64,000 nucleotides of DNA from Minisyncoccota bacterium (GTDB lineage: Bacteria > Patescibacteriota > Minisyncoccia > Moranbacterales > UBA1568). Below, in pieces: positions 6,068 to 26,181 of this stretch. Location: contig JBPPMJ010000003.1 in assembly GCA_051306005.1 (NCBI GenBank), positions 33,764 through 97,763 of the forward strand, in the 5' to 3' direction. Both the position numbers and the translations under genes were made by a program. Each line of letters opens with the position of its first letter. Positions within the stretch are counted from its first letter, which is position 1. Below the pieces are notes generated by a model. The model saw only the letters and a program-made list of their open reading frames with translations, had not been told where the DNA came from and did no database searches.

Positions 6068-6702
6068 ATATTTTTTTAGATTTTGATGATTGTCTTTTTG
6101 ATACGCACGCCTTTTATCAAGGTTTGCAAGCTCTTTTTTCAGAACATGGCATTCCAAGAAATATCTTTACAGAAACATATCAATCAATGAAACAAAATAA
6201 CACCGCGCAGGGATGGGCGTATTCTTGCGAGAAACATATGATGCTTCTGCAAGAACAGTTTGTGATTGAGGATGGCTTACAACCGGCATTGAATCAGTAT
6301 CTCAGTAATACGAGCGCATTTTTGTTTCCAGATGTGAAAAAGTTTCTCAGGATACTGCAACGACAACATGCACGAATCATTATCATATCCTTTGGTGACT
6401 CAGACTTCCAGTATCGGAAAATTTTAGGCACTGGCATTGGGTTATATACACAGAAAATTATCGTTACCGAAGGAAGTAAGGCGGAGGCCATTTGTGCAAC
6501 CAGCATTTCGCAAGGAGAGGAGACGTGGTTTGTAGATGATCGTGTGTCTTTTGTTGAGGATGTCAAGCAGGCATTGCCGATGATAAAAACAATATTGATA
6601 CAGCGTACCTCGGGGCGACATACGGATATAAAGAGTACTTATGGCACTGTTGTCGTGCGGGATTGCCATGAAATACTCCAGATTTTTGGGTATAATAAAT
6701 GA
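6064..6702 (+). CDS. HAD-superfamily hydrolase/phosphatase
   Basis: N-terminal DxD motif FLDFDDCLFDT; 4-nt overlap with the upstream nucleotidyltransferase gene. Confidence 0.55.
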   Translation: MNIFLDFDDCLFDTHAFYQGLQALFSEHGIPRNIFTETYQSMKQNNTAQGWAYSCEKHMMLLQEQFVIEDGLQPALNQYLSNTSAFLFPDVKKFLRILQRQHARIIIISFGDSDFQYRKILGTGIGLYTQKIIVTEGSKAEAICATSISQGEETWFVDDRVSFVEDVKQALPMIKTILIQRTSGRHTDIKSTYGTVVVRDCHEILQIFGYNK

Positions 6703-6740
6703 AGTGTTTTACAGGTGTAAATTATTAAATGAATACATAT

Positions 6741-8597
6741 ATGTGTGGTATTGTAGGATATTCTGGCAATAAACCAGCTTCAGATTTTTTATTGGAAGGG
6801 CTGCGGCGTTTGGAATATCGCGGATATGACAGTGCTGGAATGGCTATCATGCAATCTGGAAATGGATTGACGCGTGCTCAAAAATCTCCTCATATCGCCA
6901 TTATCAAAGCGGTAGGAAAAGTGGCGGAACTGGAAAAAAAAATGAGTCGCAAAATAGACGGCATGATAGGTATCGCGCATACGCGCTGGGCGACACATGG
7001 TAAACCATCAGAAAAAAACGCGCATCCACATACGGATTGTACCGGTAATATTGCCATCGTCCACAATGGTATTATAGAAAATTATCGTGAACTGAGAGCA
7101 GTATTGGAAAAACAAGGGCATCATTTTCGTTCAGAAACGGATACGGAAGTTATTGCACACCTCATAGAAGAGGCTATGAAAACCTTGTCCTTTGAGGATG
7201 CATTTGGAAAAATGCTCAAACAATTACGTGGCGCATACGGTATCGTCGCTCTCTCGGCACAGGAACCGAATATGCTCTTGGTGGCACGTCTCTCCAGTCC
7301 GTTGGTCATTGGGATCGGGCATCAGGAATTATGTATCGCCTCCGACACTTCAGCGATGGCTGGTAGAGTCAAACGCATTGTATATTTGGACGATCGAGAA
7401 ATCGCTGTAATCAAAGATGGCCATTACATCATCAAATCTTTTGCCAATGTTCCGCGAATCAAAAAAGAAACAGCTTTTGATCAAAATAAGACGGTAGTGG
7501 AACACAGCGGGTACCCGCATTTTATGCTGAAAGAGATTTTTGAACAGCCTCAGAGCTTTGCAGATGCTCTGCGCGGACGTTTGTTGGTAAAAGAGGGGGA
7601 GGCACATCTCGGTGGTTTACGGAATGTTGAGAAGCGTTTGCGAACTATCAAGAAAATCATTATTGTTTCTTGTGGGACATCATACCACTCCGCTCTTGTT
7701 GGAGAATATATGTTAGAAGAGTATGCACATATTCCGACGGAAGTTGAAATGGCATCAGAATTTCGTTATCGTAAACCGTTATTGGATAAGCACACGGCTG
7801 TTATTGCCATTTCGCAATCTGGTGAAACAGCGGATACACTGGCAGCGATTCGAGAGGCCAAGGCGCAGGGTGTATTGACACTTGGTATTGTTAATGTTGT
7901 TGACTCTACCATTGCTCGTGAAACTGACGCTGGCGTCTATTGCCACGCTGGACCTGAAATTTCTGTCGCTTCTACCAAAGCGTTTACGTCACAGTTAGCT
8001 ATTTTAACTTTGTTGACGCTTTATCTTGGACGAAAACGAGACATGTCTCTGGAGACCGGCAAACGTATCGCGCGAGCATTGCAACGAATTCCTCACTCCA
8101 TGGCAGAGATACTCAAACACTCGAAAGCAATGGAAAAAATTGCCAAAAAATATGCTCATGAAACTCAATACATGTATCTTGGACGGAAATATAATTTCCC
8201 TAATGCATTGGAAGGGGCGCTTAAGATTAAAGAAATCGCGTATGTTCCCGCGCAGGGCTACCCAACTGGTGAAATGAAACATGGACCCATCGCTCTTATT
8301 GATCCACAATCTGTTACTATCATCGTGATGCCCAAAGATAGTGTCCATGAGAAAAATATGAGTGGCGTGGAAGAAATCTTGGCGCGTGGTGGGAGAGTTA
8401 TTGCTGTTGCCACTAAAAATGACACCGCCATTGCCCACAAGGCAACGGATAGTATTTGGACTCCCAAGACCATTGAGATGCTGACACCATTGTTGACTGT
8501 CATACCTTTACAATTGTTTGCCTATTTTGTCGCTGTGGAACGTGGTTACGATATCGATAAGCCACGCAATTTAGCAAAGTCAGTTACCGTGGAATAG
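6741..8597 (+). CDS. glmS: glutamine--fructose-6-phosphate aminotransferase
   Basis: MCGIVGY N-terminus with the catalytic Cys after Met; two SIS domains; the ORF-track start at 6729 is 4 codons upstream. Confidence 0.95.
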   Translation: MCGIVGYSGNKPASDFLLEGLRRLEYRGYDSAGMAIMQSGNGLTRAQKSPHIAIIKAVGKVAELEKKMSRKIDGMIGIAHTRWATHGKPSEKNAHPHTDCTGNIAIVHNGIIENYRELRAVLEKQGHHFRSETDTEVIAHLIEEAMKTLSFEDAFGKMLKQLRGAYGIVALSAQEPNMLLVARLSSPLVIGIGHQELCIASDTSAMAGRVKRIVYLDDREIAVIKDGHYIIKSFANVPRIKKETAFDQNKTVVEHSGYPHFMLKEIFEQPQSFADALRGRLLVKEGEAHLGGLRNVEKRLRTIKKIIIVSCGTSYHSALVGEYMLEEYAHIPTEVEMASEFRYRKPLLDKHTAVIAISQSGETADTLAAIREAKAQGVLTLGIVNVVDSTIARETDAGVYCHAGPEISVASTKAFTSQLAILTLLTLYLGRKRDMSLETGKRIARALQRIPHSMAEILKHSKAMEKIAKKYAHETQYMYLGRKYNFPNALEGALKIKEIAYVPAQGYPTGEMKHGPIALIDPQSVTIIVMPKDSVHEKNMSGVEEILARGGRVIAVATKNDTAIAHKATDSIWTPKTIEMLTPLLTVIPLQLFAYFVAVERGYDIDKPRNLAKSVTVE

Positions 8598-10996: not shown

Positions 10997-11436
10997 TGTA
11001 AAAATTGAAAATAAAAACAACTAATATGAATGCAATTCATGTCATACTCACTGAGATTATCATTATCAATACATTACAATGAGGGATATTCAACTCACTG
11101 AGCTCAAAACTGAGAGAGAATCCGAACGTGCTCAGATGAATGCGAAAATCAATAATGCAGAGCTTTCCGATACCGCCAGAGGAATAATATAAGAATTGAA
11201 TTTGTATTTCCTGTTCGCCCCGAATTTCTTCAAAACCAGTAGCGGGACTGATTCATTCGCCCAGTTTCCGTTTGAAAAATGTTCGTGCAAAATCGCTTCC
11301 TATTCTTCATTCCGGCACACCAGAGTGAAATCAAACAGAAATCAATCCTGTCGTTCTGCTTGTTTAGAACAGGTCAACACAAAAAAAGTTTCCGCGTACC
11401 AAAAGTCCTGCTCAGAATTCCGCCAAAACAGAAATG

Positions 11437-11648
11437 CAATGAGTGTTTTTTCTTTCGGGGTTCTGCCTGTAAAGATATTCGGGCAGTGCGTGAGGCTTCA
11501 ATGCGGTCGAGGCAAAGCAAAGCTATTTTTTTTGGATATGGATTTTGGCAAAACCGAGACTAATTTGTTTTTGCATTTTGTCCGCGCGGAGGAGGGGTCT
11601 GGGGAGGAATCCGTGCGGGCTTCTGGGATTTTTTTGGCGTTTCGCGCA
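11437..11648. repeat. left arm of a long inverted repeat; the inner 67 bp (11582-11648) are an exact reverse complement of 13143-13209
   Basis: Aligned by eye: the GC-rich core CCGCGCGGAGGAGGGGTCTGGGGAGGAATCCGTGCGGGCTTCTGGGATTTTTTTGGCGTTTCGCGCA is perfect, with roughly 85-90% identity extending outward to about 11437. Confidence 0.75.
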
Positions 11649-11682
11649 TATGCAAAATTTCCACAATTCTCTTTTTTAGGGT

Positions 11683-12132
11683 ATGATGATTTTATTAAAT
11701 AATTTCCAAATAAATATGAATAATTTTGAATCTCCCCAAAATAGTGTCGAGGAACCAAGAGAAATTAAGAAACTTAATTTCTATAAAGACACTGCGCGCA
11801 AAACATTGACCGGTGAACTCACTTATGGCGACACGGTGTATGAAGATTTGAGAAAATCTTTAGCGGAAGCCGAGGAAGCGAGTATTGATGTGTCCGCCCT
11901 TAAGGTTGAAGTCGAAGAAATTGTCGCTCAAATTCCTAGAGCTGAAATAAATAATGTGCTAAAGAAAACAGAAGAATTCGTCGAGAGTGGAGATATTGCT
12001 TCTGCAAAATCGTGGCACGCAGATTTGGAGAAAAGAATTAGTTATTGGGAAAGTAAGGGGGTATTGGAAAATGAAGAAATTTTGGCATTCCAAAAGAAGT
12101 GTAATGAAATTGGTTCAAAACTTTATTCATAA
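11683..12132 (+). CDS. hypothetical acidic protein (AT-rich cassette gene 1)
   Basis: 149-aa ORF starting 35 nt inside the left repeat; about 30% GC; no recognisable domain. Confidence 0.4.
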   Translation: MMILLNNFQINMNNFESPQNSVEEPREIKKLNFYKDTARKTLTGELTYGDTVYEDLRKSLAEAEEASIDVSALKVEVEEIVAQIPRAEINNVLKKTEEFVESGDIASAKSWHADLEKRISYWESKGVLENEEILAFQKKCNEIGSKLYS

Positions 12133-12140
12133 AAAGTCTA

Positions 12141-12329
12141 TTGAATTTTTCAATATTTATTATGCAAAATTTACAAACCCCACAAGAACAAGAATTGAAA
12201 CATAAAAATGAAAAGTTGAGATTTCAATTATGGAAAAATTCAGAAAAAGTTAAATTTTATGAATTCTTAAAATGGTCTCTTGAAAATCTAAAAATCAAGA
12301 AAATAAAGGACAGTTTATATGGGAATTGA
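12141..12329 (+). CDS. hypothetical small protein (cassette gene 2)
   Basis: 62-aa ORF between the cassette genes; very AT-rich; could be noncoding. Confidence 0.25.
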   Translation: MNFSIFIMQNLQTPQEQELKHKNEKLRFQLWKNSEKVKFYEFLKWSLENLKIKKIKDSLYGN

Positions 12330-13125
12330 AAATCAAAAACCAAACGATAATGAGATAATAAAACCGACTTCGGAAGGCCAGGCTATTGAATCAGAGTCCC
12401 AAATTGTTGGAGCGGAAAAAGAAAGCCGAGAGCTTGAGTTGTCTCTTGAACAAAGCGAGAAACATGTTGAAAGCCTAGAGCAACAATTTAGCACACCTAC
12501 TAATGTTGAAAATCAAGCCGGAGTCTCTTTAGACCCCAGAATTATTGCCTACTTTAGAGAACAATTAGGACCAGAGGAAACTCTAAACAGATTGCGACAT
12601 CTTGGCCCAGATTGGATACCAAAAATTCAAGACGCAATTTTATCTGGAAAATTAGAAACCGTTGCATATTATATGAGCTTAGCCGATCCTGAAAATAATC
12701 CAGATGCGAATATAACAACGTACGCTGGCAAACGAACAGATTATAAAAATGATAAAGAATGGCTAGCTGCAGTTGATGCGGAAGACAGAGAAAGGATGTC
12801 TCATATCTTATCTTATGGTGCTAAACAAATGAATGTTGTAGAAGATATAAAAAGACGACACGACCCTGAACAAAAATATGGAGAACATTATAAAGGCCCT
12901 AAATTAGACGAGGTTTTAGAAAAACTTGGAATGAATAAAAAAGAAAGTAATGACCCTCAAGAAAAAGCTATCCAAGAAAAATTGCAATCAATACCTGACA
13001 AATTTAGAAAATTAAAATCAGCATTGTCTAGTATGAATCCTGATACTAGAAAAATAATTGTTGACGATAATAGTTTACTAAACGCGACAGAACAAGATTT
13101 TGAAAGGTGGCAAGGTTATCTTTAG
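12319..13125 (+). CDS. hypothetical acidic protein (cassette gene 3)
   Basis: 268-aa ORF ending 17 nt before the right repeat; rich in E, D, K and Q; no recognisable catalytic motif. Confidence 0.45.
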   Translation: MGIENQKPNDNEIIKPTSEGQAIESESQIVGAEKESRELELSLEQSEKHVESLEQQFSTPTNVENQAGVSLDPRIIAYFREQLGPEETLNRLRHLGPDWIPKIQDAILSGKLETVAYYMSLADPENNPDANITTYAGKRTDYKNDKEWLAAVDAEDRERMSHILSYGAKQMNVVEDIKRRHDPEQKYGEHYKGPKLDEVLEKLGMNKKESNDPQEKAIQEKLQSIPDKFRKLKSALSSMNPDTRKIIVDDNSLLNATEQDFERWQGYL

Positions 13126-13142
13126 AAGGAATTTTTTATTGT

Positions 13143-13335
13143 TGCGCGAAACGCCAAAAAAATCCCAGAAGCCCGCACGGATTCCTCCCCAGACCCCTCC
13201 TCCGCGCGGGAAATTCAGTCTCGGTTTTGCCAAATCCAAATCCCCAGAAAATAGTTTTGCTTTGCCGAGTTCGCATTGAAGCCCCGCCACACTGCCCGAA
13301 TATCTTTACAGGCAGAACCCCGAAAAGAAAAATGT
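13143..13335. repeat. right arm of the long inverted repeat (partner of 11437-11648)
   Basis: Reverse complement of the left arm; the perfect 67-bp core is at 13143-13209; similarity decays outward to about 13335. Confidence 0.75.
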
Positions 13336-13524
13336 CCTTTCCATTTTAGAAAAATCCACCCCCGCGAAATACAGAAAAGCAAGAGACATTTTTCTTTTTT
13401 GGGTTGCCGAGTGAAGCGAGGCGGTGGCGAGGCGATTCGTCGAGTGTACGATTTAGTTTTGATTCATCATGCGCTTCGCGCGTGGCACATTGTCAGCGAT
13501 TTTGAAAAGGTTATTGTTCTATTC

Positions 13525-13610
13525 TGGTGCCGGGAGAGAGACTTGAACTCTCATGATATTGCTATCGCGGGATTTTGAGTCCCGTGTGTCTACCATTCCA
13601 CCATCCCGGC
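13525..13610 (-). tRNA. tRNA-Leu (anticodon CAA), type II with a long variable arm; CCA encoded
   Basis: Reverse complement reads GCCGGGA-TG-GTGG-AATGGTAG-ACAC-A-CGGGA-CTCAAAA-TCCCG-(16-nt variable arm)-AGAGT-TCAAGTC-TCTCT-CCCGGC-ACCA. Confidence 0.85.
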
Positions 13611-13802
13611 AATATGCGTCGCCTTTTTTCTAAGCCATAATCATCGACTAGAGCATAAAAACAGCATAGAAAATTGATAATCATTTGTCAATGGACTATA
13701 CTATACAGTAGACAAATGATGATCAACAAGATATGTGCGTTGTTCCGATTGTTTGTGGTAAAGATTTTTTGTTTGTCGTGCATGTTATTCATTGACTGAC
13801 CT

Positions 13803-22989: not shown

Positions 22990-25985
<2,996 letters not shown>

Positions 25986-26067
25986 TTTCTCGTGCGGTTA
26001 ACAGTGAAGAGTGTTTGAAACAGCATACAAGATGAGGGGACAAAAAAAGACATCATTTCAAGACAGC

Positions 26068-26181
26068 ATTCTCGGTGCTTCTAGCGTCAGGGAAACACCT
26101 GTTCCCATACCGAACACAGCAGTTAAGCCTGACAGCTCCGATGGTAGCCTTTGGTGGCAAGAGTAGGACAGTGCCGAGAAT
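26068..26181 (+). rRNA. rrf: 5S ribosomal RNA
   Basis: CCCATACCGAACACAGCAGTTAAGC...GATGGTAG...AGAGTAGGACA; terminal helix ATTCTCGG/CCGAGAAT. Confidence 0.85.

Follow-up and report, generated by a model that had tools for sequence, protein, structure and literature searches.

Three open reading frames (ORFs) on a contig of a Minisyncoccota bacterium are closely bracketed by two copies of one sequence in inverted orientation, and the question raised by this locus is what kind of element these repeats belong to. The first-pass annotation, made from the letters of the DNA, had offered an invertible segment, the terminal repeats of a non-autonomous mobile cassette, and paired insulators or terminators. 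The genomes of CPR bacteria (Patescibacteria) are tiny, and descriptions of mobile elements from them are few.

We have analysed the whole 64,000-nt stretch of DNA containing the locus, called the window below, together with related loci in other CPR genomes. The reading that we favour, with a probability of roughly 55%, is that the repeats are the arms of a ca 2.5-kb cargo module (ca 10997–13524) that lacks a recombinase gene, is located at the 3' end of a tRNA-Leu(CAA) gene, and belongs to a CPR-wide family.

Geometry of the Inverted Repeat

A repeat search shows that the left core with its tail (11582–11648, plus strand) is the exact reverse complement of the right one (13143–13209, minus strand) at 67 of 67 nucleotides, just as had been claimed, with a spacing of 1494 nt. 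The tight fit around the ORFs is also as previously described: there are 34 nt from the left repeat to the ATG at 11683, and the right repeat follows 17 nt past the stop at 13125. The same holds for the T7 run, which faces the cassette in both copies (11629–11635, mirrored as A7 at 13156–13162).

Beyond the perfect part, the two arms remain similar over further blocks of 57 nt (86%), 59 nt (80%) and 40 nt (75%), with limits at 11432 and 13346, and a global alignment of the outer parts of the two arms has 36 differences in 152 columns. The outward extension reported in the first-pass annotation is thus real, but its identity is ca 76–86% on re-alignment and not 85–90%. The limit of 130–150 bp per side applies on the left (11432) but not on the right, where the element reaches the tRNA-Leu 3' end (13525). 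The inner ends were rightly said to be the best conserved, with 100% identity over the inner 67 nt and ca 76% further out.

A pattern search of the whole 64 kb, allowing up to three mismatches, found these two core copies only (zero expected, from 100 shuffles), and nhmmer with the family profile returned the same two. A DNA uptake sequence was also considered and rejected, as there are just two copies in 64 kb. No flanking direct repeat of the kind left by target-site duplication was found around the repeats.

Metagenome assemblies can make inverted chimeras and can render near-identical repeats identical, so that chance similarity or an assembly artefact has to be weighed. This explanation is effectively refuted. 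Not even a single copy arises in any of the 100 shuffles, and the architecture recurs in more than 100 genomes from many studies and assemblers. Furthermore, two independent Logan read sets each have a contig over 11619–13172 that stops inside the repeat on both sides, 30 nt into each core, which is how a true inverted repeat behaves in a k=31 graph.

Insertion at the tRNA-Leu(CAA) Gene

We now turn to the surroundings of the segment, which in the window are FolD, tRNA-Leu and ParA. The tRNA-Leu(CAA) gene (13525–13610, minus strand), identified with ARAGORN and Rfam, reads toward the right arm, and a junction alignment shows that the arm abuts its 3' end directly. In relatives with 88–89% identical ParA, the order is RNase_T, BacA, FolD, a short terminator, tRNA-Leu(CAA), ParA and ParB. 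In the relatives with an empty site (L136/L137 and L140/L141), the FolD terminator is followed directly by the tRNA gene, and the distance from FolD to the tRNA 3' end is ca 35–60 nt in relatives, compared to ca 2.5 kb in the window. These empty sites in syntenic relatives therefore identify ca 10997–13524 as an insertion, which begins exactly at the tRNA 3' end. No obvious palindromic attB was seen in the empty sites.

Between the FolD stop and the left arm, the insertion contains non-coding DNA (10997–11431) that is missing from the empty sites of the relatives. Short blastn matches to family loci show here a remnant resembling the outer tip of family-A1 arms (11266–11291) and another resembling an inverted tail sequence (11410–11437). 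An inverted copy of the tRNA-Leu 3' end (13525–13533) is found at 11313–11323 (CCGGCACACCA). On the other side, a sigma-70-like promoter lies upstream of the tRNA gene (13663–13691, minus strand; TTGACA, 17 nt, TATGCT), matching the consensus, and only in this sense a promoter, at 10 of 12 positions. Transcription from this site could pass through the tRNA and reach the right arm.

The proposal of terminal repeats of a non-autonomous mobile cassette comes closest to the evidence, but simple transposon tips they are not, because the repeats are only the 3' portion of a structured element that is longer, and integration probably took place further out, at the tRNA end. A tblastn search of the 64-kb window with a family serine recombinase found nothing, and with no recombinase gene there, mobility at this locus is historical at best.

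A Module Family across CPR

The first-pass annotation had asked for further copies of the core in other genomes, and these exist: a 27-nt core pattern has matches in at least 120 stretches of CPR genomes. The core pairs are nearly always convergent and 1.5–5 kb apart, and many of them adjoin a tRNA gene. For a set of 37 convergent pairs, the spacing is 1.5–4.9 kb, the cores are inverted in 36 of 37, and the arms are 55–433 nt long, their outer ends varying between genomes. Within a genome the two arms are mostly 93–100% identical, where the value of 100% in some metagenome-assembled genomes is possibly in part an assembly effect. The tails differ between genomes and are identical at both ends of a cassette. 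Different genomes carry unrelated cargo genes. The layout common to the family is a variable gene cassette with a conserved structured non-coding element on either side, both copies facing inward.

In 11 of the 37 pairs, a gene for a large serine recombinase (LSR; Pfam Resolvase, Recombinase and Zn_ribbon_recom; ca 500–575 aa) is present just outside an arm. The LSR modules carry perfect inverted repeats of 98–151 nt on both flanks and are positioned exactly between the tRNA 3' end and the arm tip, not at the cores. The tips of their inverted repeats repeat the last 5–8 nt of the tRNA, and these copies of the tRNA end, which mark the borders of the modules, have an inverted and not a direct orientation. 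As judged from junction sequences only, crossover would involve the tRNA end and the tips of the arms. The LSR would move cargo modules in trans. With no LSR and with a truncated left arm, the copy in the window is, in this reading, a non-autonomous and probably now immobile derivative.

The cargo of the window (11649–13142, plus strand) consists of three ORFs taken from the ORF list, namely ORF1 at 11683 (or 11716)–12132, ORF2 at 12162–12329 and ORF3 at 12319–13125, and a promoter-like site at 11658–11687 (promoter scan). Searches of all three against Pfam, PHROG, PADLOC and NCBIfam gave no significant family. For ORF3 there are eight homologs, and its AlphaFold2 model has a pLDDT of 56 and is not usable. 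The same cargo recurs with its cores, at ca 85–88% DNA identity, beside tRNA-Ser(GCU) in L007 and tRNA-Leu(UAA) in L011, where the gene neighbourhoods are unrelated.

Structure of the Arms

The right arm is a conserved, structured, non-coding element of ca 380 nt on the minus strand, running from the tRNA-Leu(CAA) 3' end (13525) to 13143. According to homology and the consensus fold, its body (13210–13524, minus strand) has the full-length form, comprising hairpin 1, the long-range helix GCCTCGCCAC/GTGGCGGGGC and additional hairpins, and its homology to L007 extends to position 13484 of the window. The outer part of the left arm (11432–11581, plus strand) aligns with the right arm as a degenerate copy. 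Its hairpin 1 loop has lost the conserved CTGGGG, and the left arm is a 5'-truncated, decaying copy of the right-arm element.

The arm hairpins covary. In hairpin 1, compensatory changes are found at seven of the nine pairs, and 96.3% of the cells are paired, as compared to 30–62% when the partner is slid. The consensus fold of the long arm form is a multi-helix structure.

Local resemblances to tmRNA, RNase P RNA and SRP RNA were noticed, but these identities were rejected, as ARAGORN and Rfam gave nothing and the positions of the motifs do not fit. A coding function of the arms was also rejected, as the overlying ORFs shift frame between genomes. Rfam has no match to the arms at the gathering score or at E≤10 in the window, nor at E≤1 in five family loci. 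The viral contigs, phage records and plasmid records searched do not contain the core or the arm, and the literature that was searched, also with the core sequence as text, does not describe the arm, the core or the module family. This agrees with the initial impression that no standard annotated feature type is at hand.

The Core Hairpin

In the family, the core is a GC-rich hairpin of the form CCGCGCGG, 21-nt loop, CCGCGCGG, followed by a T-rich tail. The stem has 8–11 bp, and the T-run begins ca 10 nt past it. The left core of the window has the stem half CCGCGCGG at 11582–11589, the 21-nt loop at 11590–11610 and the stem half CCGTGCGG at 11611–11618, after which come GCTTCTGGGA, the T7 run and GGCGTTTCGCGCA. 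The core had previously been described as starting with a palindrome; the start with CCGCGCGG is correct, but this is now seen as one half of a stem that pairs with CCGTGCGG.

A T-run of at least five within 30 nt downstream of the core, facing inward, is present in 100 of 122 family copies, while an A-run of at least five upstream is present in 9 of 122. The one-sided changes in the core stem comprise 21 G-U/U-G cases, compatible with G-U pairing on the inward strand, versus two non-pairs. A scan of the window for intrinsic terminators did not call the core, and the folding energy of a single arm is no better than that of shuffles on either strand (z-scores −0.6 and −1.0). Together with the 21-nt loop and the late T-run, this means that the core would be a non-canonical intrinsic terminator. 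With this reservation, the earlier suggestion of paired terminators or insulators is plausible for the core, which resembles a terminator facing inward at both ends.

In our preferred reading, the core hairpin and T-run would thus serve as an inward-facing terminator or insulator. The right core would stop read-through from tRNA-Leu, and the left one read-through from FolD, whose ancestral terminator would have been split off from the tRNA by the insertion. Such a role would give a reason for the core alone having remained perfect at both ends. The core and tail have no differences between the two ends in the window and one in L007, whereas the window and L007 differ from each other at ca 13 positions; that is, both arms share lineage-specific changes. 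Gene conversion or recombination between the arms would maintain the identity of the two cores.

It is also conceivable that the arms encode functional structured RNAs, each of 150–400 nt, transcribed inward and ending at the core hairpin and U-run. The right-arm RNA would then be a 3' trailer of tRNA-Leu that acts in trans or with the recombinase, and the second arm copy would be a by-product of the construction of the module. Such an RNA would account for the covarying stems, for the loop motifs TTTTCTGGGG and GGAGGGGTCTGGGGAGGAAT kept across many CPR classes, for the ornate fold of the long form, for the T-run being on the downstream side only, for the 21 to 2 ratio in the core stem, and for the arm lying directly 3' of a tRNA in matching orientation in 13 loci. 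However, the exceptions in hairpin 1 are G-U and A-C with equal frequency, which favours neither strand, and DNA hairpins would covary in the same way. Some loci tolerate flipped loops, and the window's own arm copy has several helix mismatches in the consensus fold. The decay of the second copy, in the window as in L007, has gone as far as the core, such that the RNA body is dispensable at that end. We regard the idea of an arm RNA as improbable.

Inversion and Cassette Exchange as Possible Explanations

The 67-nt perfect inverted repeat around 1494 nt has the geometry of an invertible segment. The cores would here be the crossover sites, used by RecA or by a serine recombinase acting in trans, with 11649–13142 flipping and the crossover region being homogenised. 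A number of observations fit with this: the core and tail evolve in concert within each genome, a serine recombinase gene adjoins the segment in family members, the repeat is a place of contig breaks, cargo operons differ between genomes in their direction relative to the LSR, and a comparison of L051 with L097 shows one case where a cargo end may have been swapped between the sides proximal and distal to the LSR.

Against it, the two ends carry the same inward-facing element and all ORFs are wholly inside, which means that an inversion would alter no promoter–gene or gene-end junction. The recombinase gene is absent from the 64-kb window, the three diverged genomes (window, L007 and L011) agree in how the cargo is oriented to the full-length arm, and in a subfamily beside tRNA-Asn the same cargo end always adjoins the tRNA. 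The opposite orientation did not turn up in any contig; when a metagenome was scanned for the inverted state with the left junction of L007, only the already known contig was obtained. Inversion is therefore, in our view, an unlikely explanation of the locus.

Another option is that the core is a site for the insertion, exchange and deletion of cassettes, forming an integron-like platform served by the neighbouring LSR, with the inverted arrangement being a property of the cassettes themselves. The usual order is arm-core-tail, but the same core also joins unlike partners. In L074, two cassettes, each with an inverted tail pair of its own, meet in a tail'-core-tail junction, and in L061 there is an arm-core-arm' junction without cargo. 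Core copies in L031 and L056 start inside the loop at GGGGTCTGGGG, beside unrelated DNA, and the loops in L084 and L061 are flipped relative to their flanks. The junctions of unlike modules in L074, L061, L031 and L056 suggest that the core may itself be a recombination site. In addition, the tails match at both ends of a cassette yet vary between genomes, and the core, with its ca 41 bp and dyad-symmetric ends, has the size of a serine-recombinase site.

The difficulty is that the cores would come out direct if a circular cassette underwent a single conservative crossover with one core, while 36 of 37 pairs are inverted; the simple scheme in which a circular cassette integrates at one core was on this ground rejected for the usual loci. 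Moreover, the LSR modules abut tRNA ends and arm tips rather than cores, no circular-junction sequence was seen, and heterologous junctions can also be produced at a conserved GC-rich palindrome by homologous or microhomology recombination. We consider exchange at the core to be doubtful.

A more far-reaching proposal is that the arms encode, or themselves form, a new structured nucleic-acid partner of the LSR. Together with the self-symmetric LSR unit, they would constitute a CPR-wide landing pad at tRNA ends, where core-bounded cargo cassettes are inserted, swapped or flipped. This would amount to a natural recombinase-mediated cassette exchange, possibly aided by RNA or hairpin DNA. To our knowledge, a system of this kind has not been described with serine recombinases, and we consider the proposal quite speculative.

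Comparison with Known Systems

The SCC elements of staphylococci (SCCmec, psi-SCC) are moved by the Ccr large serine recombinases and target rlmH. They share with the CPR modules the link between an LSR and insertion at the 3' end of a conserved gene, the tandem arrangement of modules there, the variable accessory cargo, and modules without recombinase that are presumably moved in trans. The CPR modules, however, target tRNA 3' ends and have inverted rather than direct copies of the target end, and they are bounded by long near-perfect inverted arms (55–433 nt) with a conserved structured element. Their recombinase gene forms a separate unit flanked by inverted repeats, and their recombination is putative. 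The inverted tRNA-end copies also set them apart from classical tRNA islands, whose copies are direct.

With the serine invertases (Hin, Gin, Cin, Pin; the P1 C segment has long inverted repeats), the family shares a segment bracketed by inverted repeats that are kept identical, and an adjoining serine recombinase gene in some members. The invertases have ca 190 aa, as compared to ca 500–575 aa for the CPR recombinases, of which the window has none; also, no alternative gene end or promoter lies across the CPR site, and a second orientation was not observed.

Integron cassettes with attC are similar in having diverse cargo at one platform and imperfectly palindromic boundaries that conserve structure, and the two-cassette array with a shared middle site in L074 adds to the likeness. 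The CPR modules differ in that the neighbouring enzymes are serine recombinases and not the IntI tyrosine recombinase, the sites are inverted and not direct, the core is highly conserved in sequence and not only in structure, and there is usually one cassette per genome.

Like non-autonomous transposons and MITEs, the modules have inverted repeats around transposase-less DNA, occur in varied places and cause assembly breaks. Unlike these, they show no target-site duplication, their inner ends are the most identical and the outer ones variable, and they occur once per genome, tied to tRNA 3' ends and a serine recombinase. ROOL and GOLLD are likewise sizeable structured non-coding elements near tRNA genes and in mobile DNA of uncultured bacteria, but the CPR element is smaller (150–400 nt), comes in inverted pairs around cargo, and at the E-values given above matches neither these nor any other Rfam family.

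The findings point to a single-copy, modular locus for accessory genes that spans many CPR classes and has a highly conserved boundary motif. It includes a covarying structured element outside Rfam and compact LSR units that lie at tRNA genes and have perfect inverted ends. If the proposed mechanism is true, it would account for the movement of restriction-modification genes, surface proteins and other accessory genes among CPR, and it would provide a set of small serine recombinases that naturally target tRNA genes and have recognisable sites. For annotation, the arm repeats account for frequent contig breaks in CPR genome bins.

Results and Discussion

The first-pass annotation had reported an exact inverted repeat, and the alignment bears this out: 11582–11648 is the reverse complement of 13143–13209 over 67 nt, with a spacing of 1494 nt. 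Two copies only are present in the 64 kb (a profile search also gives two), and shuffles lead to a chance expectation of none. Similarity does continue outward, to 11432 and 13346, but the identity is 75–86% by block, not the 85–90% that had been estimated. With a perfect 67-nt core and 36 differences in 152 columns of the outer parts (global alignment), the inner ends are indeed the best conserved. Contigs from two independent sequencing runs span 11619–13172 and end 30 nt inside each core, as a true inverted repeat behaves in a k=31 assembly graph. The core is laid out as CCGCGCGG, a 21-nt loop (AGGAGGGGTCTGGGGAGGAAT), CCGTGCGG, GCTTCTGGGA, T7 and GGCGTTTCGCGCA. Below, core denotes the GC-rich hairpin end of each repeat, tail the T-rich sequence that follows it, and arm the whole structured element.

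Between the repeats (11649–13142) lie three ORFs, of 138/149, 55 and 268 amino acids, none of which matched a family in Pfam, PHROG, PADLOC or NCBIfam. Only eight of 5.8 billion proteins are homologous to ORF3, whose structure model was of too poor quality for use. The tRNA-Leu(CAA) gene (13525–13610, minus strand) reads toward this cassette. Alignment with other loci identifies the right arm as a conserved element of ca 380 nt that runs from the tRNA 3' end directly to the right core; the left arm copies only its last 217 nt, and the loop of hairpin 1, the hairpin upstream of the core, is degenerate there.

The gene order RNase_T, BacA, FolD, tRNA-Leu(CAA), ParA, ParB is common to the window and two relatives (L136/L137 and L140/L141), whose ParA is 88–89% identical to that of the window. 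In these relatives a short terminator hairpin is all that separates the FolD stop from the tRNA 3' end; the window holds ca 2.5 kb there (10997–13524). This DNA was inserted at the 3' end of tRNA-Leu. As a third relative (L138/L139) carries an unrelated insert of ca 1 kb at the same place, this 3' end is a hot spot for insertion. The leftmost 435 nt of the insert contain remnants, namely an arm-tip-like piece (11266–11291), an inverted copy of the tRNA-Leu 3' end (11313–11323) and an inverted-tail-like piece (11410–11437).

At the same tRNA-Leu(CAA) locus of the third relative (L138 ca 6700–6990, also L139), fragments of the tRNA are duplicated and broken up by copies of a palindromic repeat (CCCTGTACCACAAGGGTACAGGG) that resembles a small REP- or MITE-like element. 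Genes with 23S_rRNA_IVP / bAvd Pfam matches (L138 7850–8224; L140 4728–5096 and 7749–8204; L141 4–225) adjoin ParA and BacA in the relatives, with no counterpart at that position in the window, and may be signs of diversity-generating retroelements or of other accessory insertions.

We now turn to other genomes, where the three-gene cassette recurs with its cores at 85–88% DNA identity in unrelated neighbourhoods. One copy (L007) adjoins tRNA-Ser(GCU) and another (L011) tRNA-Leu(UAA). Homology between the window and the L007 locus spans 11575–13484; the left copy in L007 consists of a 71-nt core only, and its two cores are complementary at 70 of 71 positions. A wider search for the core, proposed earlier as a check, does return further copies: at least 120 stretches in a collection of species-representative genomes match its 27-nt pattern (GGGGTCTRGGGAGGAATCCGYGCGGGC), and the matches listed come nearly all from Patescibacteria (Candidate Phyla Radiation, CPR), in many classes. 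Since the scan was anchored on the exact 27-mer, part of the conservation seen in this motif was built in, and the scan overlooks diverged relatives such as the one visible in L061. The core had no match in viral contigs, phage records or plasmid records, and does not occur in the literature searched.

Joining adjacent tiles gives, among the matches listed, at least 37 convergent core pairs 1.5–4.9 kb apart and at least 81 other cores, most of which lie at the ends of contigs or tiles; many family loci are interrupted by contig ends. Arms in these matches measure 55–433 nt and are mostly 93–100% identical within a genome, perfect identity being possibly inflated by assembly in some cases. As far as the sampling goes, a genome usually has one pair. 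The cargo varies by genome and includes PEP-utilising enzymes, DNA methyltransferases, restriction systems, LamG-type surface proteins, an FAD oxidase, HTH regulators and many unknowns. The insert in the window belongs to this family of cargo modules, which extends across the CPR and has structured arms that face inward.

Some bins that carry the core motif are labelled Gammaproteobacteria, Polynucleobacter, Actinomycetes or Woesearchaeota (L020 with L051, CAZXMM010000001.1, 950 kb; L022, L037, L088, L125, L132, L114, L076, L042). These are probably mislabelled or hold mis-binned CPR contigs.

Across 66 non-redundant arms, the loop of hairpin 1 (TTTTCTGGGG..AGGA) is kept while the stem changes completely (GCGCCCCGCC/GGCGGGGCG, TTTTGCGAAAA/TTTTCGCAAAA, GGCAAAGCGGAAAA/TTTTCCGCTTTGCC), with compensatory changes in 7 of 9 pairs. 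Its cells are paired in 96.3% of cases, compared to 30–62% with the partner slid, and none of 500 shuffles reached the observed score. The structure may act as RNA or as DNA: where one side alone of the core stem has changed, the inward strand can nearly always still form G-U pairs, but among the exceptions in hairpin 1, G-U and A-C are equally frequent. The long form of ca 350–400 nt, to which the right arm in the window belongs, has in addition a long-range helix around three further hairpins. No Rfam family matches the element. Such an arm might also be the gene of a trans-acting RNA, an option that partly overlaps with the mechanism proposed below.

For transcription, the flanks of the core are informative: among the matches listed, a T-run of at least 5 lies within 30 nt downstream in 100 of 122 copies and an A-run upstream in only 9 of 122. 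The core hairpin therefore looks, from its sequence, like a one-way, inward-facing terminator, non-canonical in its 21-nt loop. Together with the T-run it would stop transcription from entering the cargo, on the right from the putative tRNA-Leu promoter (promoter-like site 13691–13663, minus strand) and on the left from FolD, the shared terminator having presumably been lost through the insertion. Such blocking would account for the core being the one part that stays perfect at both ends.

Core and tail differ at ca 13 positions between the window and L007, compared to 0 within the window and 1 within L007, so sequence has been exchanged between the two cores or both have been replaced together. 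The outer arms of the window have diverged from each other about as much as from L007, which means that these parts were not exchanged. In the mechanism that we take as the most likely, gene conversion between the arms keeps the cores identical. Inversion of the segment between the repeats, considered in the first-pass annotation, is a rival that overlaps in part with this mechanism, and so is the use of the core as a cassette-exchange site. In line with the latter are cores that join unlike partners. In L074 the middle core is common to two cassettes, the cores having the same orientation and each cassette its own inverted pair of tails; in L061 two unlike arms meet at a single core without cargo, next to a further arm fragment with a diverged, flipped core; and in L031 and L056 the copy has its start within the loop, at GGGGTCTGGGG. 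Both loops of L084 are inverted with respect to their arms.

The recombination part of the proposed mechanism draws on genes beside the arms. Just outside the arm in at least 11 pairs, and in further single-arm loci, lies a large serine recombinase (LSR) gene (Resolvase + Recombinase + Zn_ribbon_recom). Each is flanked by perfect inverted repeats of 98–151 nt, ca 1400 nt apart, which cover the upstream region and gene start on one side and the gene 3' end on the other (L072 5538–5677/7079–7218; L094 1–127/1525–1651; L051 808–927/2347–2466; L046 5083–5217/6615–6749; L075 1073–1213/2753–2893; L093 757–907/2182–2332; L040, two units, 287–406/1967–2086 and 6353–6466/7887–8000; L041 1631–1757/3181–3307; L025 3991–4088/5496–5593). 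The unit of 1.6–1.8 kb sits exactly between the tRNA 3' end and the outer arm tip, and its repeat tips carry the last 5–8 nt of the adjoining tRNA (TCACCA, CCGCCA, GCACCA, GGAGCCA). It looks like a compact, self-symmetric recombinase element. L101 and L127 have miniature remnants of it between tRNA-Asn and the arm, and in at least 13 loci, the window among them, the tRNA reads directly into the arm. No recombinase gene was found in the 64-kb window. The LSR unit occupies the tRNA junction in fuller family members and is missing from the copy in the window. We propose that the modules are mobilised by the family LSRs, which would cross over at the tRNA end and at the arm tips; the copy in the window, in which one arm is truncated, would then be a stranded, non-autonomous relic.

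In L025, a third type of unit (2827–2929/3894–3996; 103-nt arms of 95% identity with 964 nt in between) lies right against the LSR unit, so that the islands may be made up of several self-symmetric modules in a row.

In its logic the family comes closest to SCC/psi-SCC of staphylococci, which combines an LSR with insertion at a conserved gene's 3' end and in which recombinase-less cargo modules stand in tandem. The CPR family, by contrast, targets a tRNA, has long inverted arms with a conserved structured element in them, and has a recombinase unit that is self-symmetric in turn. With Gin/Cin-type invertible segments it shares only the geometry, and with integron cassettes only the modularity. 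Unlike classical transposons, the window module has no target duplication, and its inner ends are the best conserved.

Elsewhere in the window, Rfam matches place 23S and 5S rRNA genes at 22992–26179 with no 16S gene directly upstream, which suggests that the rRNA operon is unlinked. Two direct-repeat pairs (40414–40499/41089–41174 and 40885–40955/41554–41624), 78–80% identical and ca 670 nt apart, suggest a tandemly duplicated domain inside a large gene.
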